A stretch of 64,000 nucleotides of DNA from Dehalococcoidia bacterium (GTDB taxonomy: Bacteria > Chloroflexota > Dehalococcoidia > Lucifugimonadales > Australimonadaceae). The notes under the pieces were generated by a model. The model was not told the origin of the DNA. It made no database searches and saw nothing but the letters and a program-made list of their open reading frames with translations. Made by a program: the position numbers and the translations under genes. Location: contig CBDFJL010000003.1 of the NCBI GenBank assembly GCA_965248495.1, positions 1,343,966 through 1,407,965 on the forward strand, given 5' to 3'. The first letter of the stretch is position 1. Each line of letters begins with the position of its first letter. Positions 2,874-64,000 of the stretch are shown piece by piece.

Positions 2874-5339
2874 ATGGTATTCAGGCAAGAAAAGTTCACT
2901 GAACAGGCGCAGGACGCGATACACAGTTCCCAGGAGCTGGTGCGCACCATGCGCCACGCCGAATGGGACGTCGAGCACGTAGTCGTCGCCCTGCTCGAAA
3001 ACGACGAGGGTGTCCCCGCCCAAGTGCTGCGACAGCTCGGCGTTGACGTGCAGCGCGTGCGCGACGAGGTCGGCCTAGCCCTGGAGGCGACGCCGAAGCT
3101 CGCTTTCCAGGCTGCCCAGATCCACCAGACCCCGCGCTCGGCTCGTCTGTTCGAGGATGCGCTGGAGGAGGCCAACCGGCTCCACGACGAGTACATCAGC
3201 ACCGAACATCTCCTCATCGCGGCCGCCGCCGATGAGGGCGGGGAGTCGGCACGGGTGCTGGCGCGCCACGGCGCCGACCGCGAGAAGATCTACCAGGCAT
3301 TGCTGGAGGTCCGCGGTGGCCACCGCGTGACCGACCCGCGGGCCGAGAGCCACTACAAGACCCTGGAGCGCTACAGCATCGACCTGACGGCGCTGGCCAA
3401 GGACGGCAAGCTCGACCCGGTCATCGGCCGCGCGGCCGAGATTCGCCGGGTGATGCAGACGCTATCCCGCCGCACCAAGAACAACCCCGTGATCATCGGC
3501 GGCGCCGGCATCGGCAAGACCGCCATCGCCGAGGGGTTGGCCCAGCGCATCGCCGCAGGCGACGTGCCGCAGGCGCTCCGCGACCGCCGAGTGCTGGCGC
3601 TGGACATGTCCGCCCTCGTGGCGGGGTCCAAGTTCCGCGGCGAGTTCGAGGAGCGGCTCAAGTCGGTGATCGACGAGGTCAAAGAGGCCGGGCGCGAGGT
3701 CATCCTCTTCATAGACGAGCTGCACACCGTCGTGGGCGCAGGCGCCGCGGAGGGTGGCATCGACGCCGCCAACATCATGAAGCCAGCGCTGTCGAGGGGT
3801 GAAATGCAGGTCGTCGGCGCCACGACCCCCGACGAGTACCGTCGCTACATCGAGAAGGATGCCGCGCTCGAGCGCCGCTTCCAGCCGGTCTGGCTCGAGG
3901 AGCCGACGGTGGACGAGGCCATCGAGATCTTGCGCGGCCTCAAGCCCCGCTACGAGGCCCACCACAAGGTCCGCTTCGACGACGCGGCCCTGGTGGCCGC
4001 CGCTCGGCTCAGCGCACGCTACATCACCGGGCGTCATCTGCCCGACAAGGCGGTCGACCTCATGGACGAGGCGGCGGCCAAGCTGCGCCTTGACTCCGAG
4101 AGCCTGCCGCCCGAGCTCCACGAAGAGGAGCGCAAGCTCCGCAGGCTCCAGGACGAGGAGAACGCGGCCGCCGAGCGCAACGACTTCGAGGCCGCGGCGC
4201 GCATCAAGGCGGAGCGCCTCCAACTGCAGGACGCGTTCGACAAGGAGCGGGCCGAGTTCCTCGGCGAGGACGTCACCGACCTCGTGGTCGAGGAGGACGA
4301 CATCGCCAAGCTCATCGCCAGCTGGACCGGCATTCCCGCCACGCGCCTTCTCGAAGAAGAGGCAGAGCGGCTGATCCACCTGGAGGACCGCTTGCACGAG
4401 CGCGTCGTCGGCCAGCACGATGCCATCACGGCCATCGCCGACGCTATCAGGCGCTCCCGCGCCGGCCTCCAGGACCCGAAGCGGCCCATCGGCAGCTTCA
4501 TGTTCCTGGGCCCGACCGGGGTGGGGAAGACGGAGCTCGCCCGAGCCCTCGCCGCGTTCCTGTTCGACGACGAGGAGAACATGGTGCGGATCGACATGTC
4601 CGAGTATGGCGAGCGCCATACCGTTTCGCGACTCATCGGCGCCCCGCCCGGATACGTTGGCTACGAGGAGGCGGGCCAGCTGACCGAAGCCGTGCGCCGC
4701 CGTCCTTTCCGGGTCGTGCTCTTCGACGAGATCGAGAAGGCGCACCCGGACGTGTTCAACCTGCTCCTGCAAATACTGGAGGACGGCCGGCTCACCGACG
4801 GCCATGGCCGTACGGTCGACTTCCGCAACGTGGTCGTCATCATGACCTCGAACTTGGGCACCGCTGAGTTCACCAAGGCAGGCATCGGCTTCCAGCTCGG
4901 CGAGCAGACGGCCAGCGACGAGCAGCGCCACCGCGACGCCGTGCTGGAGGCGCTCAAGCGCGAGTTCCGTCCCGAGTTCCTGAACCGGGTCGACGAGTTC
5001 ATCGTCTTCCAAGAGCTGAAGGAGGACGAGATCGCTCAGATCGTCGACCTCATGGTCCACGAGGTGCAGGAGCGGGTCGTGGACCGCAAGGTCGAGCTGG
5101 ACCTGACGCCGGCGGCGAAGACGTGGCTGGCGCACGAGGGCTTCGACCCGGTCTACGGCGCCCGGCCGCTACGGCGGGCCATCCAGCGCCACGTTGAGAA
5201 CGAGCTGGCCAAGCGCATCCTGTCTGGCGAGATCCACGACGGCGACACCGTCGAGGTGGACGCGGGGAAAGATGGGCTGACGTTTACGTCGCAGCGGAGC
5301 CCCGCGCAGCGGGAGCCCGCCGCGGCCGAGTCGGCGTAG
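2874..5339 (+). CDS. clpC: AAA+ Hsp100/Clp ATPase, ClpC-like (short M-domain, IGF-type loop)
   Basis: 821 aa. Clp_N repeats. Two Walker A motifs ([16 protein letters not shown]). Short UVR-like middle domain ([17 protein letters not shown]). AGIGFQ loop in NBD2 that ClpB lacks. Confidence 0.85.
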
Positions 5340-11159: not shown

Positions 11160-11999
11160 TCAGCCCAGCCCCAAGAACGGCGCCAGCGCCTCCACGAAGG
11201 CGTCGGCGTTATCCACCGGCACGATGTGCGCTGCCTTGGGCACGTCCAATGACTCGAGGCGCGGGTTGGCCGCCCGCATGCGGTCCAAAATCGCATCCGA
11301 TACGAAGTGGCTGTCGCGTCCGCGCACCTCGAGGACCGGGCAGGCGATGGCCTCATAGGCAGCCCAGAGCTGCGCCGTCTGGTCGGGTGCCGGCACGGAC
11401 CGATCGAACAGCGCGGGGTCCAGGCGCCAAACCCACGTTCCGCCGTCGCGTTGCTCGAGCTTGTTGGCGAGGTCGGCCCGAATGGCTGATTCAGGCCCCG
11501 AAAACCACACGCCCTCGCGGGACCATGCCACGGCTTCGTCGAAGCCGCCGAACGTCATTGGCCGCGGCGGGCGGCTGGTCCGCTGCGCCTCCGCGCCGGG
11601 GCCCGTCTCGGGACCGATGTCAACGAGAGCGAGACGCTCCAAGCGGTCGGGGTGCGCGGCCGCATACAGCATGGCGACGATGCCGCCCAGCGACTGGCCG
11701 ACGATGGTGAGCATGCCGGTGTCCATGGCATCGATGAACGCGGAGAAGTCGGCCAGGTAGCGGTCGTAGCCGTAGCCGTCCGCGGCCCACGCGCTGCCGC
11801 CATGCCCCCGGAAGTCGAGCGCGAGGACGTGGTAGCGCGACGCCGCGGCCTCCGCCAGCCGGTCGAATACGTGGGCCTGTTCAGTGAACCCATGCAGACA
11901 GACCAGGGCGGGCGCGTCGGTCGCCCCGGCCTCCAAGTAGTGGAGACGCAGGCCGTTTGCATCGACGTGGCGATCGGCGAGTGTCGAAGAGTCGGGCAT
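11160..11999 (-). CDS. alpha/beta-fold hydrolase
   Basis: 279 aa. HGF oxyanion region, GQSLGG nucleophile elbow, C-terminal H (AAHIVP). Confidence 0.8.
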   Translation of the reverse strand: MPDSSTLADRHVDANGLRLHYLEAGATDAPALVCLHGFTEQAHVFDRLAEAAASRYHVLALDFRGHGGSAWAADGYGYDRYLADFSAFIDAMDTGMLTIVGQSLGGIVAMLYAAAHPDRLERLALVDIGPETGPGAEAQRTSRPPRPMTFGGFDEAVAWSREGVWFSGPESAIRADLANKLEQRDGGTWVWRLDPALFDRSVPAPDQTAQLWAAYEAIACPVLEVRGRDSHFVSDAILDRMRAANPRLESLDVPKAAHIVPVDNADAFVEALAPFLGLG

Positions 12000-47221: not shown

Positions 47222-48295
47222 ATGAAGGTAGACCTGCGCACGCCGCCCTCGCACCCCGTCGCCGAGATGGTGGCCTTCGCTCAGCAATGCGAGGAGGCGG
47301 GCTTCCACGCCTGTGGCTTCAACGACTCGCAGCTCTACTTCCGCGATAACTACGTCGTCGCCGCGCAGGTGCTCGCCAACACCGAGCGCCTGGTGGTCCA
47401 CCCCGCGCTGACCTGCCCGGGGCCACGGCACACTTCGGTCATCGCCTCGGCCGCCAAGACCGTCCAGGAGTTTGGGCCCGGCCGCTACGAGCTCTGGCTG
47501 GGGCGGGGCGACGCCGCGGCGTCCACCATCGGCCACGCGGCGCTCACCCTGGCCGAGACCCGGCAGGCCATCAGCGAGATCAAGCGGACCATGGCCGGAG
47601 AGTGGGGCGTCTGGGGCGACCCGCACGTGCATCTCCACCACAGTGACGGCCCACCGGTCCCGGTGTTCCTCGCGGGTCGCGGACCCAAGGTCATCGGCAT
47701 CGCCGGCGAGCTGTGCGACGGCGTGCTGCTGGCGGTCGAGCCCAACGCCGAGTCGATCACGCAGGCCAAGGGCTGGCTCGCCGACGGCGCCGCGAGGGCG
47801 GGGCGCGACCCCGCCGACATCGAGGTGGTGCTCGAGGTCCGAACCATGATCCGCGAGACCCGGCGCCTGGCCCACCGCACGCATGCGCCCAAGCTGTTGC
47901 CCAACCTCGTGCGCGACGACTCCCAAGCGTGGCTGACCAAGCGCGGCATCGACTACGACCTCACGCCCATCAAGGCGCGGCTCCGCGAAGGCTGGGAGCG
48001 GATGCAACAGCTCGCGCCGTCCGCGACCCATCCCTACGACTGGAGCGCCGCCGAAGACATCGCCGACGCCGCCATCCCCGAGGAGCTGCAGGCGGTGGCA
48101 GGGGACACGATGGCGGTGCTGGGCGACCCGGACTACGTGGCGACACGGTACCTCGACTTCCAGGCCATGGGCATCGACCGCATCTACATGTACGCGAACC
48201 TGTCGTTCCAGTGGCCCGAGGACGAGCGCCGCGCCTTCGCGGAGGTCATCGGCCCAGCGCTGGCCAGGGGCGCGAGCGCCGCGGCGGGAGGCTAG
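47222..48295 (+). CDS. luciferase-like (LLM) flavin/F420-dependent oxidoreductase
   Basis: 357 aa. TIM-barrel LLM pattern (GFHACGFNDSQ..., LWLGRGD). Confidence 0.65.
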   Translation: MKVDLRTPPSHPVAEMVAFAQQCEEAGFHACGFNDSQLYFRDNYVVAAQVLANTERLVVHPALTCPGPRHTSVIASAAKTVQEFGPGRYELWLGRGDAAASTIGHAALTLAETRQAISEIKRTMAGEWGVWGDPHVHLHHSDGPPVPVFLAGRGPKVIGIAGELCDGVLLAVEPNAESITQAKGWLADGAARAGRDPADIEVVLEVRTMIRETRRLAHRTHAPKLLPNLVRDDSQAWLTKRGIDYDLTPIKARLREGWERMQQLAPSATHPYDWSAAEDIADAAIPEELQAVAGDTMAVLGDPDYVATRYLDFQAMGIDRIYMYANLSFQWPEDERRAFAEVIGPALARGASAAAGG

Positions 48296-48834
48296 GCCGG
48301 CAGCACCGCGCGACCCTCGGGTGTCGGCACGCCGAACGCGTTCAGGCAACACGCCAGCATGACGTAGGCGCCGACGATAGCGGCGAGCTCGGCCATGTCC
48401 CGCTCGCCTAACCGCTCGAGCAGCGCCCCGAAGGTCGCGTCCGATACGCGATGCGGCGCGCGTAGCACCTCGTGGACGTACCGCACCACCACCGCCTCGT
48501 TGGGCGTGAGCCCATCGGGCGCCGTCCCGGCCTTGATCGACGCGATCGCCTCCTCCCGAACGCCCGCCTCGCGGGCCTCGTCCTCGTGGGCCGCCCACTC
48601 GTACAGGCAGTCAAGCTCGCGCGCGACGCTGCAGATGGCGAGCTCGGCGACCCGCTTATCGAGTTTCGCCTCAAAGCGGGCGTAGCCGATGGTGTGGGCC
48701 ACGCGCGCGGCGAGGTCGGGCGAGTTGAGCAGGTACTGGTAGGGCGCGGCGATCCGGCCCCTGCTTGCGATGATCGAGTCGAAATGCGGCTGGTCAGCTT
48801 CGGCGACCTGCTCGCGCTGGGTTATCTCCGACAT
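48292..48834 (-). CDS. carboxymuconolactone decarboxylase (AhpD-like) family protein
   Basis: CMD core ARELDCLYEWAAH. Start at MSEITQ (ATG 48834). Confidence 0.65.
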   Translation of the reverse strand: MSEITQREQVAEADQPHFDSIIASRGRIAAPYQYLLNSPDLAARVAHTIGYARFEAKLDKRVAELAICSVARELDCLYEWAAHEDEAREAGVREEAIASIKAGTAPDGLTPNEAVVVRYVHEVLRAPHRVSDATFGALLERLGERDMAELAAIVGAYVMLACCLNAFGVPTPEGRAVLPA

Positions 48835-48962
48835 GCGTGGCAAGGGGAGCCTCCTTATCGGCGGTTGGCGCGCCACATGGTAGCGTCGCCTGCCCCCGGC
48901 GGCACCCGCCTCGCTGTTGCGCCGCCTGGACGGCCGGTGGCCGGGCATGCGATAACGGTGCG

Positions 48963-50339
48963 GTGACGGCCGAATCGAACCCCTATCGGGACCTCCCCAG
49001 CGTCGACAAGGTGCTGGCGGAGCCCGCGCTGGCCCCGCTGCTGGCGGAGTACGCCCACGACGTCATCGTCGATGCGGTCCGCGAGCAGCTTGCCCACGCA
49101 CGAGCGTCGCTCGGTACCGGGAGCGGCGTACCCACGGCGGAAGCCGTGGCCCTGAGCGTCGCGGCCCGTCGCCTCCGAGCGTGGCGGCCCTGGCCGACCC
49201 CCGTCATCAACGCCACCGGCGTCGTCCTCCACACCAACCTCGGCCGCGCGCCGCTCTCCGAGGCAAGCATCCGCGCGGCGGAGTCGTCGGGCGCCTACTC
49301 GGACCTTGAGCTGGACCTTGACGACGGCAAGCGGAGCACGCGCCACCGAGTGCTGGCCGGGCTCCTGCGCGAGCTCACCGGCGCCGAGGACGCCGTCGTC
49401 GTCAACAACAACGCGGGGGCCATGCTGCTTGGCATGGCGGCGATCGCCAGCGGCAAGGAGGTCGTCGTGGCCCGCGGCGAGGCCAGCGAGATCGGCGGCG
49501 GCTTTCGCATCCCCGACGTGCTGCGCCAGGGCGGGGCGCGCCTCGTCGAGGTGGGCACGGTCAACCGGACGTATGCCAGCGACTACGACGAGGCGGTGAC
49601 GGCGGACACGGCAGCCCTGCTGGTAGTCCATCGCAGCAACTTCCAAGTCGTCGGGTTTACGCACGAGCCATCGGTGGCCGAGGTGGCGGCGGTCGCCAAG
49701 GACAAAGGCGTGCCGCTGCTCCACGACCTCGGCAGCGGCGCGCTGATCGACACCACCCCGTTTGGACTCGCCCACGAGTGGACGCCGCAGGAGAGCATCG
49801 CGGCCGGCGCTGGGCTGGTGTTCATTTCGGGCGACAAGCTGCTGGGCGGCCCCCAGGCAGGCATCGTCGTCGGCGAACGAGATCTCGTCGCGCGGCTGGC
49901 GCGCCACCCGCTGGCCCGGCCGCTGCGGGCCGACAAGCTGACGCTGGCGGCGTTGCACGCGACGTTGTTGCACTACCTCCGCGGCGAGGCCCGCGAGGCG
50001 GTGCCCATCTGGCGCATGATCGCGGCGACCGCCGAGCAGATCGAGGCGCGCGCGCGCGCCGTCGCCACGTTGGCCGGGGCGCAGGCCAGCGTTACGCCTG
50101 GCGAGTCGACGGTCGGTGGCGGCAGCCTCCCCGGCGACACGCTGCCGACGTGGCTCGTGAGCCTGGACCCGTCGGGCGTCGATGGCGGCGCCGACGAGCT
50201 GGCGCGCCGGCTGCGCACCGGCGACCCCGCGGTGATGGCGCGAATCGAGGACGACCGCGTGCTGCTCGATGTGAGAACCGTGCTGCCCGTGCAGGACGCC
50301 GCGCTTGCGCCGGCCATCCGCTCCGCGCTCGGGTCCTAG
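48963..50339 (+). CDS. selA: L-seryl-tRNA(Sec) selenium transferase
   Basis: N-terminal YRDLPSVDKVL. PLP-lysine motif ISGDKLLGGPQAGIVVG. ~458 aa from GTG 48963. Confidence 0.8.
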   Translation: MTAESNPYRDLPSVDKVLAEPALAPLLAEYAHDVIVDAVREQLAHARASLGTGSGVPTAEAVALSVAARRLRAWRPWPTPVINATGVVLHTNLGRAPLSEASIRAAESSGAYSDLELDLDDGKRSTRHRVLAGLLRELTGAEDAVVVNNNAGAMLLGMAAIASGKEVVVARGEASEIGGGFRIPDVLRQGGARLVEVGTVNRTYASDYDEAVTADTAALLVVHRSNFQVVGFTHEPSVAEVAAVAKDKGVPLLHDLGSGALIDTTPFGLAHEWTPQESIAAGAGLVFISGDKLLGGPQAGIVVGERDLVARLARHPLARPLRADKLTLAALHATLLHYLRGEAREAVPIWRMIAATAEQIEARARAVATLAGAQASVTPGESTVGGGSLPGDTLPTWLVSLDPSGVDGGADELARRLRTGDPAVMARIEDDRVLLDVRTVLPVQDAALAPAIRSALGS

Positions 50340-51619
50340 ACGCGCAGGCTTCTGAAGCGCGGGTTTAGCATCGTAATCAGCGTGATCGCGGTCAGGCCGA
50401 CCACCGCGCCGGAAACCAGCGCCGTCTGGACACCCCACGCCTCGGCGATGAGGCCCGCGATGAGCCCTCCCAGGGGCATCATGCCGATGTCCATCATGTA
50501 GACGCCCATGACCCGCCCGCGCATCTCATCGGGCGTCATCATTTGAAGCACCGTGTTGTTGGTGGTCATCACGCTCATCTGGAATGCGTTGACGAACACC
50601 AAGATAGCCATGGCCTGCCACAGCACGCTGACCTGGGCGAAGCCGATGATGCCAAGCCCGGCCATGAATAGGGAGACGATGACCAGCCGGCCCTTGTTGC
50701 GGATCTGCGTGAAGGCGGCCATGAGGAAGGTGCCAACGAACCCGCCGATGCCCGCGCCGGTCAGCAACAGACCCAGCGTGCTCCCCTCGCCCGACTTCTG
50801 GCCGAGCACTTCGACAGCGTAGACCGGCATCAGCGTCATGATGAACGACATCATCGTCAGCGTCGGGACCAGTGCCACCAGGATCACGGTCAGTGTGTTC
50901 TTGTCGCCGACCACGTAACGGAAGCCGTCGCGCACGTTCGAAAAGATCGACCGCTTTCGGCTCTCCGAGTGGTCCGACGTGTACTCGGCGCGGAAGGGCA
51001 GGATCATGACCATGACGCCGACGTAGAAGATCCCTTGGATGAGGAAGTTGAGGCCCGGGCCGAAGAACGTGATGAGGAGGCCCCCGACCGCCGGCCCGAA
51101 CACGCGGGTGAAGTTGAATGCCATGGAGTTGAGGGCCACGGCGTTCATCAGCGCTTCACGGGGGACCGAGTTGCTGACCAGGGTCTGCCGCACCGGATTG
51201 TTGATGCTCCAACCCGCGCCGGTCAGGAAGCTGAAGAGGTGCAGATGCCACAGCACGTGGTTGTCGCTCAGGACGATAGCCGAGAACCCCAGCGCCAACA
51301 CCGCGAGGAATGCCTGGTCCAGCAGCATGACCCGGCGGCGGTCGAAGCGGTCGGCGATGGCCCCGGATAGCGGCGCCATCAGCAGCGGCACGGCGCGCAG
51401 GCCAACGACGAGGGACACCTGCAAGGCCGACCCGCTGAGCTCGAAGGCGAGCCATCCCAACGTCACCTGCTGGACCCAGTTGCCCCCGCTCACGAAGAGC
51501 GTGCTGATCCAGAGCAGGCGGAAGTTGCGGTACTGGAATGCGCTGAATGTCTGGTGCCAGCGAGAGCCACGCCGAACGGCGGCGTCTGCTGCGGGTATGC
51601 CCTCGGCTGCTTGGCTCAT
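50336..51619 (-). CDS. MFS transporter
   Basis: 12 predicted TM segments. Start at MSQAAEG (ATG 51619). Its stop overlaps the selA stop (CTAG). Confidence 0.75.
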   Translation of the reverse strand: MSQAAEGIPAADAAVRRGSRWHQTFSAFQYRNFRLLWISTLFVSGGNWVQQVTLGWLAFELSGSALQVSLVVGLRAVPLLMAPLSGAIADRFDRRRVMLLDQAFLAVLALGFSAIVLSDNHVLWHLHLFSFLTGAGWSINNPVRQTLVSNSVPREALMNAVALNSMAFNFTRVFGPAVGGLLITFFGPGLNFLIQGIFYVGVMVMILPFRAEYTSDHSESRKRSIFSNVRDGFRYVVGDKNTLTVILVALVPTLTMMSFIMTLMPVYAVEVLGQKSGEGSTLGLLLTGAGIGGFVGTFLMAAFTQIRNKGRLVIVSLFMAGLGIIGFAQVSVLWQAMAILVFVNAFQMSVMTTNNTVLQMMTPDEMRGRVMGVYMMDIGMMPLGGLIAGLIAEAWGVQTALVSGAVVGLTAITLITMLNPRFRSLRV

Positions 51620-51734
51620 TGAAGCCTGTCCACCAGCACAGCGGACTGTGTCCAAAAGGGGCGCTGGAGGGCGCCATCGAGTCTAGCGATGGACAGTTGC
51701 ACCGTCAACGACATATCAAAGGCATTGCCACGCG

Positions 51735-56675: not shown

Positions 56676-58131
56676 GGTCAGCGGCTTCATGGAGTTCGAC
56701 CGTGAGCCGCCGGAACGCCGACCGATCACCGAACGCACGAAGGACTTCCAGGAGGTCTACCTGGCGTGGCCGGAGCAGCAGGCACGTGACCAGGGCGCTC
56801 GCTGCATGAGCTGCGCCTTGCCCTTTTGCCACATGGGCTGCCCGCTCGGCAACCTGATCCCTGACTGGAACGACCTCGTCTACCGTGGCCGTTGGCGTGA
56901 GGCGCTAGGCGCCCTGCACGCCACCAACAACTTCCCGGAGTTCACCGGCCGCATCTGCCCGGCGCCTTGCGAGGCGTCCTGCGTCCTGGCCGTCAACGAC
57001 GAGCCCGTGACCATCGAGTACATCGAAAAGGCCATCGTCGATCGTGGATTCGAAGAGGGCTGGATCACGCCGGAGCCACCGGCAAAGCGGACCGGCAAGC
57101 GCGTCGCGGTCGTGGGCTCCGGCCCAGCGGGCCTTGCCGCCGCGCAGCAGCTGAACCGCGCGGGGCACCTCGTCACCGTGTTCGAGCGAAGCGAGGTCGT
57201 CGGCGGCCTGCTCTCGCTGGGGATCCCCGACTTCAAGCTGGACAAGTCCGTCGTCAGCCGGCGTGTCGATGTCATGGCGGCGGAGGGCATCGAGTTCCGC
57301 ACCGGGTGCGACGTGGGCGTCGACCTCAGCGTCGAGGAGCTGCGCTCAGGGTTCGACGCCATCTGCCTGGCTGGAGGATCGACCATCGCCCGCAGGCTCG
57401 GTGTTCCCGGCGAGGAGCTCGACGGCGTCCACCTGGCGATGGACTACTTGCCGCAGCAAAACAGACTCAACCGAGGCGAGTCGGTGCCCGACGGCGACCG
57501 CATCTCCGCCGAGGGCAAGCGGGTCGTCATTCTCGGTGGAGGCGACACGGGAGCGGACTGCCTGGGCACGGCCCACCGCCAAGGCGCCGAGGTCGTCTAC
57601 CAGTACGAGATCCTGCCCGAGCCGCCGAAGGAGCGGGCATCGAGCAACCCCTGGCCCCTCTGGCCGCTGGTCCTGCGCACGTCCCCCGCCCACGAAGAGG
57701 GCGGCATACGCGACTACAACATCCTGACCACGTCCTTTTCGGGGGACGACGGCCATGTGAAGAAGCTGCACGGTGTGCGGATTGAGTGGGGTGCGCCCGA
57801 CGCCACCGGTCGGCCGAGCATGAACGAAGTGCCGGGCAGCGAGTTCGAGATCGAGGCGGACCTTGTGCTCCTTGCCCTGGGCTTCCTGCACCCCCAGCGC
57901 GAGGGCGTGTTGGAGCAGCTCGGCGTCGAGCTCGACGGCCGTGGCAACGTTAAGACCACCGAGGAGAAGATGACCAGCGTCTCGGGCGTCTTCGCCGCGG
58001 GCGACATGGCCCGTGGCCAGTCGCTGGTGGTCTGGGCCATCGCCGAAGGCCGGCAGGCGGCTTACGGCATCGACAGGTTCCTAATGGGCGCGACGGAGCT
58101 GCCGAGCGTGAGCCTGGCGGGCTGGGCCTAA
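56668..58131 (+). CDS. gltD: glutamate synthase small subunit (NADPH)
   Basis: [14 protein letters not shown]-terminus from GTG 56668 (8-nt overlap with gltB). Fe-S Cys clusters. [10 protein letters not shown] dinucleotide fold. The ORF-track start at 56428 lies inside gltB. Confidence 0.9.
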
Positions 58132-58136
58132 CAAAA

Positions 58137-58170
58137 AGACCGGGCAGTGCGTTTCCGCACCACCCGGTCT
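58137..58170. terminator. bidirectional stem-loop between gltD and the Rieske gene
   Basis: AGACCGGG-ca-GTGCG-tttc-CGCAC-ca-CCCGGTCT, preceded by an A-tract. Confidence 0.55.
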
Positions 58171-58195
58171 GCTTACCGACGATGAGTCCTGGCGG

Positions 58196-59494
58196 CTACT
58201 CCTTGCCGCGCATGTAGTCGTCCCGGTCGATACGCTGAAAGTTCCCACGCGTCTGGATGCCACGGGCCTCGCGGGCGACCAGCTTGCGCCACTCCACGAT
58301 GGCGTAGTCGGCCCGGTACAGACGCTCGCGGTGCCAGAAGTCCTCGTACTGGTAGGCGTGGTGCGACGACTCCCGGCCGAGGATGTCGAAGTTATTGAAG
58401 CCTTGCGGCTCCACGCCAGGCTCGGTAAACACGTCGCTTGCCAACGTCTCCTCGACCTCCTTGCGGAAGGCCTCGGCCTCCTCGCGCGTGTTGCACTGCT
58501 TGCCCTGGATGATCGTGTACATGTGGTAGTCCTCGTCGACGGGGACGTACCACTCCCAGTGATAGAGGTCAGGCCGGGGGAAGCCCTTTACGTCCAGTTG
58601 GCAGGGGAGGAACGGGCCGAAGGTGTCCGGGTAGAAGGACACGTTGTCCGGGTCCTTGTCCGGAGTCGCCGTGAACACCTGTGACATGTCGGGGATGTTG
58701 TCGGGGTCGACACCCGGCGGAGCGACCATCACGCCCTCGACCTCGGCCACCCACGCGTTGATGGACGATCGGACCAGCATGCCGACGGGCTTGCCCGGCT
58801 CGTTGACCATCTTGATCTCGCCACGGTTCGCGGAGCGGGTGCCCATGGGAAGCACGGCCCCGTAGCGCTGCGCGGCCGCCCAGTTGCGGTGGCCGTAGAT
58901 GTGGCCCGTGTCGTAGCCGTTCTCCACCGCCAGACGCCAGTTCGCCTTGATCAGGCGGCGCATCAGCGGGTACGCCACGAGGTTCGGCTCCAGGAACGTG
59001 GGCATGACGTCGTGCTTGAGCGGGACCACGGGGACGCCGTCGCCGATGTAGACGAAGATCGCTCCGTTGAGCTCGTCGCAGTGGTAGGTCTGGATCGTTA
59101 TCTTGCCGATCACCGGGCTGCCCGGATCGGACATGACCTGGACCAGCGACCCGTCGCGGACGTCGAAGGTGAAGCCGTGCAGGAAGCAGGAGACGGTGTT
59201 CTCCGAGTAGCACTCGGGCCTATGGGAGAATGTCGAACCCCGGTGCGGGCAGCGATCCGCAATGCCGTACACCTTGCCCTTGACGCGCTTGAACAGAATG
59301 CGCTCGCCGCAGATGACGGCGTTGTTGGTCTTGCCCTCCTCCAGCTCGTGGGAGAAGAGCGCCGGGTACCAGTACTCGCGCAGCCCGAGCTCGGCGTCGA
59401 GGTAGCGCTGGTACGGCCGGAAGTGCTCGTGGCCCGCCTCCTCCTCGTGCCCGACCTCTACGAGAATCTCTTCCTGTTCTCGCTCCTTGACCAT
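58196..59494 (-). CDS. Rieske [2Fe-2S] oxygenase, alpha-subunit-like
   Basis: CPHRG...CFLHGF Rieske motif. NGYDTGHIYGH iron motif. 432 aa. No partner subunits adjacent. Confidence 0.75.
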   Translation of the reverse strand: MVKEREQEEILVEVGHEEEAGHEHFRPYQRYLDAELGLREYWYPALFSHELEEGKTNNAVICGERILFKRVKGKVYGIADRCPHRGSTFSHRPECYSENTVSCFLHGFTFDVRDGSLVQVMSDPGSPVIGKITIQTYHCDELNGAIFVYIGDGVPVVPLKHDVMPTFLEPNLVAYPLMRRLIKANWRLAVENGYDTGHIYGHRNWAAAQRYGAVLPMGTRSANRGEIKMVNEPGKPVGMLVRSSINAWVAEVEGVMVAPPGVDPDNIPDMSQVFTATPDKDPDNVSFYPDTFGPFLPCQLDVKGFPRPDLYHWEWYVPVDEDYHMYTIIQGKQCNTREEAEAFRKEVEETLASDVFTEPGVEPQGFNNFDILGRESSHHAYQYEDFWHRERLYRADYAIVEWRKLVAREARGIQTRGNFQRIDRDDYMRGKE

Positions 59495-59640
59495 GACACC
59501 CTCCGTCTCTTGTGGTCTGTTTTTTCGTGCGTGTGTATCCGAAATTGGGCCAAACCATACCTCACCCTGGCGACACCGCGCCCGCGGTCGTCACACGGTT
59601 GTGTCTGCGCCGAAAGAGTGGTTGCTGGTATGGTCGCGCC

Positions 59641-60366
59641 ATGGCAACTCTCGACGGACCCCAGCGCGACCCGAGGAGCGGCGGCAACGCCGAGAGCTTC
59701 GTGATCCTCCTGCACGGTCTGAGCTCGTGCGGCGACGACATGATGTTCCTGGCCGACGGCCTCGCCGACGCGCTACCGAACGCGAAGTTCTATGCGCCCA
59801 ACGCTCCATATCCGTACGACTTCGCCAACGATCCCAAGTCGAACCGAGGGGCCGACTTCGACCCCGCCGGCCATTACCAGTGGTACAACCGCTTCTCGGA
59901 GCGGACGCGGCAGCAAGGGCTCTACGAGATCGCCGAGCCCGTCAACGCCTTCATCGCGGAGTGCGCCAAGGAGAACGGCCTCGACGAGTCGCGTGGCGCT
60001 GTCATTGGTCACTCGCAGGGGTGCATCACGGCGCTCAACGTCGTGCCGCGGCGCTCGTCACCGCTCGGTGCCCTGGTCGCGCACAGCGGTTACCTCTTCT
60101 CGCCGGACTCGTTGCCCCAGCGCAAGACGCAGCGCGAGCGCTTCTTCACCGAGGTCGGGAGCCACACGCCGACTTGTGGAATTCACGGGACCGAAGACCC
60201 CGCCCAGGCGTGGCAGATGATGCACGAGTCGATCATGACCTACCTCGAGGCCGGCATCCCCTCCGAGTTTCACCTCATCGGCGGCCTCGGTCATGCCATC
60301 GGCGAACGCTCGATCGCGATCATGTCGTCGTTCCTGCAGGAGCACCTCCCGCCTCAGGCGGTCTGA
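59641..60366 (+). CDS. phospholipase/carboxylesterase-family alpha/beta hydrolase
   Basis: ILLHGLSS oxyanion region, GHSQG nucleophile, IHGTEDP. ATG 59641. Confidence 0.7.
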   Translation: MATLDGPQRDPRSGGNAESFVILLHGLSSCGDDMMFLADGLADALPNAKFYAPNAPYPYDFANDPKSNRGADFDPAGHYQWYNRFSERTRQQGLYEIAEPVNAFIAECAKENGLDESRGAVIGHSQGCITALNVVPRRSSPLGALVAHSGYLFSPDSLPQRKTQRERFFTEVGSHTPTCGIHGTEDPAQAWQMMHESIMTYLEAGIPSEFHLIGGLGHAIGERSIAIMSSFLQEHLPPQAV

Positions 60367-60465
60367 TCTGGCAGACCTAGCGTCAGCTGTCCCGTCCATG
60401 CCCACCCCGGAAGGTGTCCCGCCTCCGGTACGGGGACGCTTGCCTTACCCGGCGGCGCCGCGGGG

Positions 60466-60484
60466 CCCTTCGGCTACGCTCAGG
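60466..60484 (-). repeat. second copy of the short dispersed motif CCTGAGCG(A/T)AGCCG(C/A)AGGG
   Basis: The reverse complement of 60466-60484 is CCTGAGCGTAGCCGAAGGG, compared with 13397-13415 CCTGAGCGAAGCCGCAGGG (17/19). Confidence 0.5.
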
Positions 60485-60606
60485 ACAGGCTCCGCGGGCG
60501 GGCAGACCTGGTTCAGACGCCAGCCCGAGTTTGCCTAGGCCCGCTTGAGACGCACTGCCTGGCTGAGGCATGCTCGGGGTGTAAACAACCTCTGTGGGAA
60601 CTACGC

Positions 60607-61204
60607 TTAGTCGAAGACGATCGGCTCGCCCCAAGAGTCGGCGAAGGCGATCTCCTCGACGGACATGCGCGTCTTCGGGCCGTGCGGCTCCGCGGGGAAT
60701 CCCAGCGGTACCAATGCGATGATCTGGCGGTCCTCGGGAACACCGAGAGTTGCCATCAGCTCCTCGTATCGCAGCATGTGGTTCGTGGTTATGGTGCCGC
60801 CCAACCCCAGCGCCCTCGCCGCCAGGAGCAAGTTTTGTACTGAGGGGTACGACGAAGCGAAGGGCGTGACGGTACCCAGACCGGGGCGGCGAATCACCGT
60901 CGTGCAGACCGCCACGATCACGGGCGCCTCGTCCATGTGGAGCGCCAGGTACGCCGACGGGTCGCTGTCGGCGTTCCCCGCTGCTGCGCCCTCGGTTCGC
61001 GAAGAACCCCTCCTCGTAAATGCGCGCGACCTTCCGTTTCGGCTCGGGGTCGCGGACGACCACGAAGCGCCACGGCTGGTTGTTCCGCCCACTCGGGCCT
61101 TGCGTCGCCGCATCGAGTACTCGCCGCAGTAGCGCGGGGGGTATCGGGTCGCTGCGGAACCTGCGTATGGCGCGCGTCGTATAGATGGCCTCGAAGAGGC
61201 CCAT
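60607..61204 (-). pseudogene. nitroreductase-family gene split by one frameshift
   Basis: The N-terminal part (MGLFEAIYTTRAIRRF...NNQPWRFVVVRDPE...IYEEGFF) is in one frame. The C-terminal part (DPSAYLALHMDEAPVIVAVC...SVQNLLLAARALGLGG...) is in another. The junction is around 60975-61000, near a GGGG run. Confidence 0.7.
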
Positions 61205-61304
61205 GTCCTCAGGCACTGCCGGCTCCTGTCGGGGAATCCGGGGAAGCATACCCGCTGTCGTCGGCACGGTGCAGACCTGGACGAGGGGCGCTTCGCGCCG
61301 CGCC

Positions 61305-61871
61305 CTAGCCGCCTACGGACAGCTCTTCGCGCAGCGCCTGCACCTGCGAGGCCATGGGGACGCCGGCCCAGCGAGGAGGCCCGTCCTCGGGCTCGATGGT
61401 CAGCTCGACGAGCGACGGGCCCTCGGCCGCGAGGATCGCGGGGAGGTCCTCCCGCAGCGTAGCCGCGTCGTCGTAGCGCGCGGCGCACCGATAGCCGGCC
61501 GAAAGGGCCAGCCCGCAGGCGTCGAACACGCCCCGCCCGGGTATCGGCTGGTTGCCGGTGCTCTGGTAGAGCCCGTTGGCGAAGACGAAGTGGTAGAGGT
61601 TCGTGGGGGCGAGCCCGGCGACCGTCACCAGCGTCCCGAGCTGCATGAGCAGGCTGCCGTCCCCGTCCAACACCCACACGCCGCGGTTCGGCCGGCCCAG
61701 CGCGAGCCCGAGGCCGATTGACGATGCGCTGCCCATGCAACCCGTCGCGTCGATATGGCTTTGCGAGGCCTGGCCGGCCTCGTGCCACGGGACGATCGAC
61801 TGCATGCAGGCTACGCTGAGGGCATCACCTCGGTGGTCCGCGAGCGCCTGGATGGCTTCACTCCGTTGCAA
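61305..61871 (-). CDS. TPP-binding decarboxylase beta subunit (sulfopyruvate/phosphonopyruvate decarboxylase ComE-like)
   Basis: GCMGSASSIGLGLALG...VLDGDGSLLMQLGTL TPP-binding motif. 188 aa. Confidence 0.65.
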   Translation of the reverse strand: MQRSEAIQALADHRGDALSVACMQSIVPWHEAGQASQSHIDATGCMGSASSIGLGLALGRPNRGVWVLDGDGSLLMQLGTLVTVAGLAPTNLYHFVFANGLYQSTGNQPIPGRGVFDACGLALSAGYRCAARYDDAATLREDLPAILAAEGPSLVELTIEPEDGPPRWAGVPMASQVQALREELSVGG

Positions 61872-61880
61872 CGTCGTCTC

Positions 61881-62402
61881 CTAGTTTGTCGGGGCGCCGA
61901 TCAGGATGACCACGGGACCGCGACGCTCATGGCTTTCGTGCAGGGCCGTGCCGACGTTCGGCAGGTCGGCGGGCGCATCGAGCCGGTAGAACGGCACGTC
62001 CCACGCGTGCAGCGTCGGCTCGATGACACGCACGCGCGGGCTCGTGTGCTCTGACACGGGCTTGGTGACGTCTCGTCCGAACTCGCCCACGAACATGAGG
62101 GTCGGGACCTGTGCCTCTATTGCGATAGCCCGCAGCGTTCAGCGAGGCGAAGAAGCCGGTGTTCTGCACCAGCAGCATCGGGCGGTGGCCGCTCATGTAG
62201 AGGCCCGCGTTGATGCCCATCGCCTCGTCCTCGGTGGCCACGGGCAGTAGCACCGGGTCGCCCTGCTCGGCGATGGCGGTAATCAGCGTTCGCGCAGCGT
62301 ATCCGGTACCGTGACGACGTGGGTCATGCCAAGGCGCCGTAATTCGGCGGCGATGGCGCGCCCTTCGACGGGGTGGGCCAGCGGCGTGGCCTGGGTCTGC
62401 AT
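61881..62402 (-). pseudogene. ComD-like TPP-enzyme alpha subunit with two frameshifts
   Basis: The ATG 62402 frame hits TGA at 62285-62283. The conserved core LITAIAEQG..VATEDEAMGINAGLYMSGHRPMLLVQNTGFFASLNA is in a second frame. The C-terminal AIAIEAQVPTLMFVGEFG... returns to the first frame at ~62125-62137. Confidence 0.7.
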
Positions 62403-62456
62403 GGCGGACCTCCCTCGGACGCCGGGCATGATACGCCAGCTAACCCCACACCACAC

Positions 62457-63569
62457 TTAACCCCAGACCGTCTTGGCGGTCTCCGCGACGGTGCGCAGCT
62501 TGCGCGACTGGTCGGCCGGGCTCAGTCGGTTGCCTCCGACGGAGGTGGCAAACCCGCACTGGGGGCTCACGCCGAGTCGTTCGAGCGGGACGTACCGAGC
62601 GGCCTCGGCGATGCGCGCTTCCAAGTCCGCCACCGTCTCCTCGCGGGGCCCCTTCGTCGTCACCAGGCCCAACACCACCGTCTTGTCTTCGGGCACGCCG
62701 GCGAGGGGTTCGAAGCCGCCTGCGCGGGCATCGTCGTATTCCAGCATCAGCCGTTGCGCGTGCACCTGTTGTAGCACCGGCCGGGTGAGCCGCTCGTACC
62801 CGCCCTCTGTCAGCCACCGGCTGCCCTGGTTGCCCCGTCAGAGGTGGAACGCGAACGTCACCCGCGGGAAGGCGTCTATCACCGAGTTGTCCAGCTCGAT
62901 GCCTCGCGCAACCCAGTCCTCGGCGCTCCAGCCCTGCGACGCGTAGAAGGCGGACCAGGCGGGGTCGAGGACCAACGGGTAGTGGGGCGCGTCGAGCTGC
63001 ACGTACGTGGCGCCGAGCCGGGCGAGCTCCGCGACCTCGTCCCGCAGAATATCGGTGACGTCGGCCAGGAACGCATCGAGGGTGGGGTAGGCGTCGACCG
63101 ATCGTTCCGGCGACCAGAAGTTGGCAAACAGGCTGGGGCTCGGCAACGTCGTCTTCACCACTCTGTCGGTGCGCCCGCGCAGGTAGACAAACTCCTCGAC
63201 GGACAGGTGTCGCTTGCGCCGGAGCTTCCCGACCACGCCGAGGGTCTGGGGCCGATCGACAGTGAGGTCGCCGACCACCCCGTCGCCATGCCATGCCCCC
63301 CAGAGGAACGCGTCGATGTCGAACTGCCCAAAGCCCTCGACGGCCTCCGGCATCTGACTCTGGAAGGACAGACGGCGCATCTCGCCGTCTGTGACGATGC
63401 CCAGGCCCGCGTCCTCTTGGATGGCGACCGCCGCATCCACGGCGGCATCCTCGATGCGCTTGAATTCCGCTGCCGAGATGCGCCCCCCAGCCGAGTCGTC
63501 CCGTGCCCGGAGCAGCGCGGGCGGCCGGAGCAGACTCCCGACGACGTCGGCGTGGGGCAGCGTGTCCAT
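62457..63569 (-). CDS. cobalamin-independent methionine-synthase-family (MetE C-terminal-domain-like) protein with one in-frame TGA at the His-x-Cys zinc-ligand codon
   Basis: A 371-codon frame that is otherwise open. ...FAFHL[TGA 62840-62838]RGNQGSRWLTEGGYE...LMLEYDDARAGGFEPL...SPQCGFATS. TATACT sits 7 nt upstream of ATG 63569. Confidence 0.6.
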
Positions 63570-63604
63570 CGGCGCGAGTATAAGGGAGGGGCGAATAGCG
63601 GGGA

Positions 63605-63645
63605 GGAAAATGAACAAGGGGCCGGCCATTTGAGGCCGGCCCCTT
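63605..63645 (-). terminator. intrinsic terminator after the partial upstream gene
   Basis: 12-bp stem AAGGGGCCGGCC/GGCCGGCCCCTT (63616-63645). On the minus strand it is followed by GUUCAUUUUCC. Confidence 0.6.
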
Positions 63646-63677
63646 CGATCTCGCTTGACTACCGCGAGCGTCCGCCG

Positions 63678-64000
63678 CTAGCCGGCCTCGACGGGTGCTT
63701 CCTTCTCGATTGGCGGCCAGTAGACCCAGCCGGAGCCGGTCGTGACCTTGCGGGCGGGCATGTAGTCGGTCCACTCGGCCTTGTGGCCGGCCTTGACCTC
63801 ATCGACCGCACCGGCGACAACCGTCCAGCAGCGCAGCTCGCCTGTGCCGCCGACAAAGTTCTCGGAGCGGAAGGAGAACATGGCCTTGAGGTTATCGGCC
63901 TGGCCGGAGGTCAGCTGGTCCAAGAACCAGTTGTCCAGGGGCTCGTCCACCCAGCCCGTGCGGGGCCCACGCGGGTCGTGGGACATGCCACCCGAGCCGT
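63678..64000 (-). CDS. hypothetical protein, C-terminal part only (5' end beyond the window)
   Basis: The frame is open to the window edge. C-terminal sequence ...GWVDEPLDNWFLDQLTSGQ...GWVYWPPIEKEAPVEAG. No family recognised. Confidence 0.4.
   Translation of the reverse strand, partial: GSGGMSHDPRGPRTGWVDEPLDNWFLDQLTSGQADNLKAMFSFRSENFVGGTGELRCWTVVAGAVDEVKAGHKAEWTDYMPARKVTTGSGWVYWPPIEKEAPVEAG

Follow-up and report, generated by a model that had tools for sequence, protein, structure and literature searches.

A 64,000-nucleotide stretch of DNA from a Dehalococcoidia bacterium (GenBank assembly GCA_965248495.1, contig CBDFJL010000003.1, positions 1,343,966 to 1,407,965; hereafter the window) carries, close to its end and on the minus strand, a gene for a protein resembling the catalytic domain of MetE, a methionine synthase that works independently of cobalamin. 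The positions of this gene and of the other features are collected in Table 1. It was found by translation, as the original prediction had it, that the frame from the ATG (63569-63567) to the TAA (62459-62457) comprises 371 codons with only one internal stop, a TGA. The N-terminal part of 243 residues ends with VTFAFH242-L243, and the TGA at codon 244 is followed by RGNQGSRWL. Further downstream lie LEYDD, which starts at residue 276 and holds E277, and PQCG, which starts at residue 336 and holds C338. The comparison of this gene among species makes it highly probable that the TGA is a genuine selenocysteine (Sec) codon. What doubt is left concerns selB, selC, and selD in this particular genome and the incorporation of Sec, which I infer from sequences.

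The protein matches Pfam PF01717 (Meth_synt_2) over residues 9-343 (E = 1.6e-18; 67.5 bits against a cut-off of 21). The nearest NCBIfam models are PRK06520 (222 bits against 313) and PRK06233 (198 bits against 576), and both scores are under the cut-offs; these two are models of 'vitamin B12 independent methionine synthase' proteins of about 370 residues. TIGR01371, the model of the two-domain MetE, gave 46 bits against a cut-off of 930, with the match confined to the C-terminal half of the model. A canonical two-domain MetE (TIGR01371 / PRK05222) is ruled out by this low score and by the single domain of 370 residues. Judging from these scores, the MetE-like protein is a subfamily related to PRK06520 and PRK06233 and a member of neither. 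No model dedicated to this putative selenoprotein family exists in NCBIfam release 20. The closest solved structure is an uncharacterised Listeria protein, 1YPX (E = 6e-45), whose site reads MHICRGN. The 120 best protein homologues, which are at most 74% identical, are all full length and all read FHLC[RK]GNQxSRWL.

Which residue of MetE corresponds to the TGA? The E. coli metE gene was taken from NC_000913, and H641, C643, E665, and C726 were verified in its sequence. A profile of the family was then aligned with the MetE C-terminal domain using hhalign (probability 98%, 321 columns). The alignment pairs fHLCrG with tHMCyc, LMLEY with vitiE, and SPQCGF with NPDCGL. Since H-L-C is paired with H641-M-C643, the TGA lies at the position of the first Cys ligand of the zinc, which agrees with the original prediction. 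This profile alignment was needed because phmmer and hmmsearch comparisons of the family with the PDB and with E. coli MetE skipped the H-x-C segment, their alignments covering the N-terminal half and the PQCG region. Across 285 sequences (83 Sec-form and 202 Cys-form), H242, Sec/Cys244, E277, and C338 never vary. The closest Cys homologue, P0001, shares 74% identity with the window protein, and its AlphaFold model has a predicted local distance difference test score (pLDDT) of 82 and a predicted template modelling score (pTM) of 0.86. In this model, the ligand residues are located at or just past the ends of strands 238-243, 273-277, and 332-336. Foldseek matched the model with 1YPX, 3RPD, and the MetE structures of T. 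maritima, C. albicans, and N. crassa (E from 1e-18 to 1e-14; TM scores of about 0.72), zinc-bound MetE structures being among these matches. According to the model, the fold of the window protein is the triosephosphate isomerase (TIM) barrel of the MetE catalytic domain; by homology with MetE, the metal of its site is presumably zinc.

Does the same TGA occur in other genomes? Because gene callers would truncate any Sec form, it was DNA that was searched. A degenerate DNA pattern back-translated from H-L-TGA-R/K-G-N-Q-x-S-R-W, CAYYTNTGAMRNGGNAAYCARNNNWSNMGNTGG, was used on 185,579 representative genomes, one genome per GTDB species, and loci of 8 kb were taken. The Sec pattern gave 99 loci, while about 0.5 would be expected in random sequence by my own arithmetic. 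These loci belong to Poribacteria, Dehalococcoidia, Acidobacteriota (including Marinacidobacterales), Methylomirabilota, Latescibacterota, Binatia, Gemmatimonadales, Tectomicrobia, Nitrospinota, and others. Where the locus edge permits, at least 242 codons can be read without a stop ahead of the TGA and 126-139 codons behind it, and a further interruption was found in only two of the 99 loci (L027 and L032). The translated products are 56-87% identical to the window protein over the full length.

The closest of these loci, L037, comes from a Dehalococcoidia metagenome-assembled genome (MAG). It is syntenic with the 57.8-64.0 kb region of the window at 83-87% nucleotide identity, and the two MetE-like proteins align without a gap at 86.8% identity. 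The original prediction had pointed to close relatives as a check, and this nearest relative has TGA at the same codon, not a Cys codon. The ratio of nonsynonymous to synonymous substitution rates (dN/dS) between the window and L037 is 0.119 upstream of the TGA and 0.110 downstream of it, with a dS of about 0.7. Thus, purifying selection is the same behind the TGA as ahead of it. Moreover, RGNQGSRWL, the stretch of nine residues that directly follows the TGA, is near-invariant in Sec and Cys forms alike, which indicates that translation proceeds past TGA244.

The TGA column is occupied by Cys in all of the 120 best protein homologues and in all of 115 metagenome loci, which were collected as a control set with the same pattern carrying TGY. 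The alignment of orthologues proposed in the original prediction thus revealed that TGA and Cys codons alternate at this column. In a rough neighbour-joining tree (83 Sec forms, 202 Cys forms), Sec and Cys interleave; the tree has 29 clades that are purely Sec and requires 20 or more parsimony changes. The recurrence, the selection, and the alternation of Sec and Cys agree with the usual comparative hallmarks of a selenoprotein family. Judged by name alone, from the record titles of L001-L080, the Sec-form taxa resemble marine sponge and marine/groundwater communities.

In bacteria, the selenocysteine insertion sequence (SECIS) is a stem-loop that directly follows the UGA and whose small apical loop contains G (PMC1088965). 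The hairpin CAGCC-GGU-GGCUG that the original prediction had pointed out is present downstream of TGA244. When the U of the UGA is numbered 1, the hairpin spans positions 18-30 and its loop positions 23-25. RNAalifold found this hairpin plus one flanking pair as the sole consensus structure 3′ of the UGA in the Sec set; in the Cys set it found no such hairpin. In an alignment of 100 Sec forms, 99.1% of the hairpin cells are paired. Pair 18-30, the only pair that is free to vary, is CG in 82 cases, GC in three, UG in two, and AU in one, and its four double (compensatory) changes were reached in none of 500 shuffles. A second hairpin (62783-62801), offered as a supporting point in the original prediction, forms in the single-sequence fold and is missing from the RNAalifold consensus of about 100 orthologues. 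It was therefore set aside as incidental.

The 5-bp stem (18-22 with 26-30) together with a G[G/U]U loop was found in 94 of 98 Sec forms and in 16 of 115 Cys forms (Fisher p = 9e-38, with no correction for phylogeny or for GC content, which is higher in the Cys set). Taken alone, the five stem pairs are seen in the same 94/98 proportion of the Sec forms and in 65/115 of the Cys forms, the latter because the stem mostly consists of the invariant Ser-Arg-Trp-Leu codons (AGC CGN TGG YTG). The Arg codon supplying loop positions 23-24 is CGG (71), CGT (25), or AGG (2) and never CGC in the Sec set, while it is CGC (83), CGG (14), CGT (11), CGA (5), or AGG (2) in the Cys set. The Leu codon closing the stem is YTG in 92 of the 98 Sec forms and 67 of the 115 Cys forms. 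It is the loop and the closing pair, rather than the stem, that distinguish the Sec set from the Cys set.

Table 1. Positions of the MetE-like gene, its putative Sec codon and zinc-site codons, the candidate SECIS core, and neighbouring genes in the window.
Feature	Position	Strand	Remarks
MetE-like gene (PF01717, 'cobalamin-independent methionine synthase II family')	62457..63569	-	370 residues including Sec244
UGA codon 244, putatively read as Sec	62838..62840	-	aligns with E. coli MetE Cys643 (zinc ligand)
His242 codon	62844..62846	-	aligned with MetE His641; hhalign and alignment invariance
Glu277 codon	62739..62741	-	aligned with MetE Glu665; hhalign and alignment invariance
Cys338 codon	62556..62558	-	aligned with MetE Cys726; hhalign and alignment invariance
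Candidate SECIS core	62811..62823	-	stem 62819-62823 (CAGCC) with 62811-62815 (GGCUG); apical loop GGU 62816-62818
selA	48963..50339	+	TIGR00474, 509 bits against a cut-off of 268; start 48963 = GTG
Thiamine pyrophosphate (TPP)-dependent decarboxylase	61305..62420	-	
Nitroreductase	60568..61260	-	
CMD (AhpD-like) gene	48292..48948	-	divergent from selA
MFS_3 transporter	50336..51655	-	convergent with selA

The arrangement resembles that of the E. coli fdhF gene, in which UGA140 is likewise followed by a short stem inside the coding sequence with a small apical loop containing G and U. The loop GGUC of fdhF occupies positions 22-25 (read from the genome) and the loop GGU of the window occupies positions 23-25, and the local upper stems have comparable energies (-5.7 and -6.8 kcal/mol, respectively). 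In contrast to fdhF, the window hairpin has five contiguous base pairs and a loop of 3 nt, and it lacks a conserved bulged U and a conserved lower stem. FdhH belongs to an enzyme family unrelated to the MetE-like protein and uses an unrelated metal; Sec is a ligand of Mo in FdhH, while it would presumably be a ligand of Zn in the window protein. By analogy with fdhF, a ribosome at UGA244 would be offered the GGU loop by the hairpin 14 nt downstream, and SelB carrying Sec-tRNASec would bind this loop, so that Sec would be inserted in place of termination. The product would be a single-domain TIM-barrel enzyme of 370 residues in which Sec244 replaces the first Cys of a His-x-Cys...Glu...Cys zinc site. 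By homology with MetE, the zinc would activate a thiol or selenol substrate for methyl transfer. Thus, the selenolate may be a direct ligand of the catalytic metal. The binding of SelB, here by analogy, as well as the incorporation of Sec, zinc as the metal, and the substrate are points that I infer.

Does the window contain other signs of Sec usage? The selA gene was confirmed where the original prediction had placed it. The 46 coding-like open reading frames (ORFs) of the window end with TAG (29), TGA (10, including the Sec codon), or TAA (7). The nine ORFs properly terminated by TGA include the two minus-strand genes ending at 11160 and 34056, which the original prediction had cited for TGA as an ordinary stop, plus seven more. 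In a scan for in-frame stops (coding-like GC content at the third and second codon positions, GC3 and GC2; at least 60 codons on each side), TGA244 was the sole TGA in the 64 kb. Genome-wide reassignment of UGA was considered since 12 hand-picked genes end with TAG or TAA, and the stop-codon count led to its rejection. The TAG-heavy stop usage itself is unusual for DNA with a GC content of 67%. TGA is usually the dominant stop codon in GC-rich bacteria.

Might the TGA be a fresh nonsense mutation, making the gene a recent pseudogene in a decaying neighbourhood? A single substitution turns TGC or TGT into TGA, and the genes for the TPP-dependent decarboxylase and the nitroreductase downstream each have a -1/-2 frameshift pair relative to L037 (-1 near 62294 and -2 near 62139 in the former; -1 near 61237 and -2 near 60990 in the latter). 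The original prediction had spoken of three frameshifts downstream; the frameshifts are real in the comparison with L037, while their number is four, in two pairs. The two indels of a pair are 150-250 nt apart, each pair nets -3 and thereby restores the frame, and the stretch between the indels of the first pair, which was checked, is conserved only in the shifted frame (96% identity). These indels are either assembly errors or real lesions. The MetE-like gene has no indel relative to its L037 orthologue, which has kept the same TGA at a dS of about 0.7 with a low dN/dS (0.11) behind it, and the TGA is found in 98 further species with intact frames. Between the two options of the original prediction, Sec and a nonsense mutation, the 99 TGA loci, L037, and the dN/dS values favour Sec and make a nonsense mutation very improbable. 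If the nearby frameshifts are assembly errors, the third base of a Cys codon might also have been misread. However, the same error in about 100 independent assemblies, which according to their record titles span short-read and long-read MAGs and one single-cell genome, is not credible, and it would leave the Sec-specific loop sequence unexplained; an error of this kind is extremely improbable.

The gene might instead be naturally split into an N-terminal polypeptide of 243 residues and a separate C-terminal polypeptide, since a GTG at 62777 opens an ORF of 106 codons in the same frame. A start at this GTG would lose 20 residues after the TGA, including the near-invariant RGNQGSRWL, and the 100-sequence alignment has no conserved start codon or ribosome-binding site after the TGA, so that there is next to no chance of a split gene. 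The recurrence of the TGA, the selection, and the tree of Sec and Cys forms therefore exclude, for practical purposes, the nonsense mutation, the sequencing error, and the split gene alike. Another possibility is that the UGA is reassigned, or that a near-cognate or suppressor tRNA inserts Cys or Trp, for instance, at this codon. This would agree with the absence of tRNASec and SelD matches from the window, and the Sec residue is deduced from sequence. However, TGA ends the nine other ORFs and is internal to no other gene of the window, and selA, which is specific for Sec synthesis, is present. Furthermore, the conserved G[G/U]U loop at the fdhF-like distance is a requirement of SelB-dependent recoding, and the carrier taxa are too diverse for a common reassignment. 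A non-Sec reading of the UGA is hardly probable.

Several points weigh against a Sec codon. The window hairpin is minimal (5 bp, about -6.8 kcal/mol), and the 71-nt segment 62770-62840, for which the original prediction had suggested a SECIS predictor or covariance model, is no stabler than its shuffles as a single-sequence fold (z = +0.83). Rfam models run over the whole window at the gathering thresholds detected tRNAs only and no SECIS family, and around the site only chance-level matches were obtained at E up to 10. Thus, the case for a SECIS rests on the comparison between species, not on folding energy. The stem is in part a by-product of the conserved Gly-Ser-Arg-Trp-Leu codons, as seen in the 65 Cys forms with all five pairs, and two of five close Cys relatives of the window keep the full element, which is an intermediate state. 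The tRNA and Rfam scans found no tRNASec in the 64-kb window; no SelD match was found in it either, and selB was not searched for. Finally, the frameshifts in the neighbouring genes mean that either the assembly or the locus is not pristine.

Is the MetE-like gene associated with a particular pathway? Neighbourhood clustering of the 99 loci revealed no universal partner, the largest families being present in 13-19 loci. A gene for SenA, SenB, SelD, or EgtD adjoins the MetE-like gene on the same strand in 36 of the 99 Sec-form loci, mostly at a distance of 0-600 nt. The NCBIfam scores against the cut-offs are 540/420 bits for SenA, 372/300 for SenB, 314/125 for SelD, and 376/291 for EgtD. The sen cluster for selenoneine biosynthesis consists of senA, senB, and senC/selD, sometimes with egtD (Kayrouz et al., bioRxiv 10.1101/2022.04.13.486033), and the sen-cluster literature that was consulted has no mention of a MetE-like gene in these operons. 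Two arrangements were found, in which X stands for the MetE-like gene. One is egtD-X-senA, often followed by a gene for a ProV-type ATP-binding cassette (ABC) ATPase for betaine, and its titled loci are mostly from Methylomirabilota. The other is amidohydrolase-like-X-selD-senB, whose titled loci are all from Poribacteria. Examples of sen-operon loci are L006, L036, L047, and L090, and L018, L034, L066, and L087 (range L005-L099). At least one of senA, senB, selD, and egtD is within the locus in 36/99 Sec loci as opposed to 2/120 Cys loci, a contrast that is weak because the Cys loci have a smaller average length and other habitats of origin.

In five poribacterial loci (L018, L026, L034, L066, and L087), the SelD gene about 0.1-0.4 kb downstream has an in-frame TGA (..SLAKTCG-TGA-AAKV..). 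This TGA is at the classical catalytic position of SelD. Thus, two selenoprotein genes would adjoin each other in those Poribacteria genomes. In contrast to these lineages, the window has no match to senA, senB, senC/selD, or egtD, even at E = 1e-3.

Since the gene sits inside selenoneine operons in other lineages, a role in the selenoneine pathway is proposed here. The MetE-like family might act on a selenium or sulfur substrate of this pathway, or it might regenerate methionine for EgtD, which consumes S-adenosylmethionine (SAM). EgtD uses three SAM molecules per hercynine. The working idea is that a sulfur or selenium nucleophile tied to the selenoneine pathway would gain or lose an alkyl group in a zinc-dependent transfer. 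Taken together, it is possible, though I hold it tentatively and with less than even confidence, that this is the founding selenoprotein family with Sec as a ligand of a catalytic, non-redox zinc and also an undescribed fourth or fifth component of the sen operon (egtD-X-senA or X-selD-senB), which methylates or demethylates a selenium or sulfur substrate. Candidate substrates are selenoneine, a selenosugar-derived selenol, and (seleno)homocysteine, and the same tentative grade covers them as part of the whole.

How does this protein differ from the known enzymes? MetE, core-MetE, and 'methionine synthase II' proteins (1YPX, 3RPD; PF01717) share with it the TIM-barrel catalytic domain and the aligned His-x-Cys...Glu...Cys tetrad, whose residues are required for activity in core-MetE homologues (PMC12478193). 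Unlike MetE, the window protein has a UGA-encoded residue in place of the first Cys, no N-terminal folate-binding barrel (370 vs 753 residues), and about 11 additional residues (RGNQGSRWL...) inserted behind the ligand. In [NiFeSe] hydrogenases and Mo/W formate dehydrogenases, Sec replaces the Cys on the catalytic metal, and Sec and Cys forms coexist in related organisms (PMC13582414). These enzymes share with the window protein a Sec that would serve as a metal ligand rather than as a free redox nucleophile, while the site of the window protein, by homology, would be a non-redox, Lewis-acid zinc. The metal-binding selenocysteines described so far are ligands of redox metals (Mo, W, Ni). A natural Sec ligand of zinc was described nowhere in the literature covered by a shallow search.

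Methionine synthase, MetE, homocysteine, and PF01717 are nowhere mentioned in a 2026 review (PMC13188914) whose tables list the prokaryotic selenoprotein families by Pfam and NCBIfam identifier. The Global Ocean Sampling (GOS) selenoproteome paper and the deep-Sep paper likewise lack these terms, and a 2021 marine survey names methionine synthase only as the B12 enzyme MetH. A search of open-access full text combining selenoprotein terms with methionine synthase returned nothing relevant, although a prior description is possible since it was a keyword search. The original prediction knew of no described Sec-containing member of the family, and none was found in the published lists searched by keyword. 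Papers on the Bmt, MtgBCD, and Mlp methyltransferases deal with other families and do not explain the MetE-like gene. From these comparisons, the MetE-like protein appears to represent a new selenoprotein family with a standard recoding mechanism. The unusual points are Sec at a zinc-ligand position and the association with sen operons.

Gene callers split the Sec forms into fragments of 243 residues and about 106-126 residues, or mark them as pseudogenes. Thus, about 100 species have an enzyme that is mis-annotated across its active site. For the window gene, neither fragment is on record in the protein collection. If the Sec reading is true, selenium would be put to a new use, as a selenolate bound to the Lewis-acid zinc of a methyltransferase, and the family would provide a natural Sec/Cys series for asking how selenium affects zinc-thiolate alkyl transfer or resistance to oxidation. 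That the gene lies between egtD and senA, or beside selD-senB, in 36 species may point to a missing step or a support function in selenoneine metabolism. If so, protein-bound and small-molecule selenium metabolism would be linked within one operon.

A switch from Cys to Sec would take just one synonymous change (CGC to CGG or CGT) in addition to TGY to TGA. As the SECIS partly consists of the invariant Ser-Arg-Trp-Leu codons, such an easy switch would explain the many changes on the tree. Two of the five close Cys-form relatives, L221 and L222 (one with TGT and the other with TGC), have a complete stem and a GUU loop (around 4730-4790). This looks like a recent Sec-to-Cys conversion or Cys forms that are one step short of Sec.

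The selA gene of the window is flanked by the divergent CMD gene and the convergent MFS_3 transporter gene, neither of which is selB, and the end of the transporter gene overlaps the selA stop codon by 4 nt. Around the MetE-like gene, the window (57800-64000) and L037 (1-8000) encode two LigB-family extradiol dioxygenases, the split TPP decarboxylase, the nitroreductase, an alpha/beta hydrolase, and a Rieske 'homotrimeric ring hydroxylase'. This context resembles aromatic catabolism and says little about the function of the MetE-like gene. One idea for a context of this type is O-demethylation of methoxy-aromatics.

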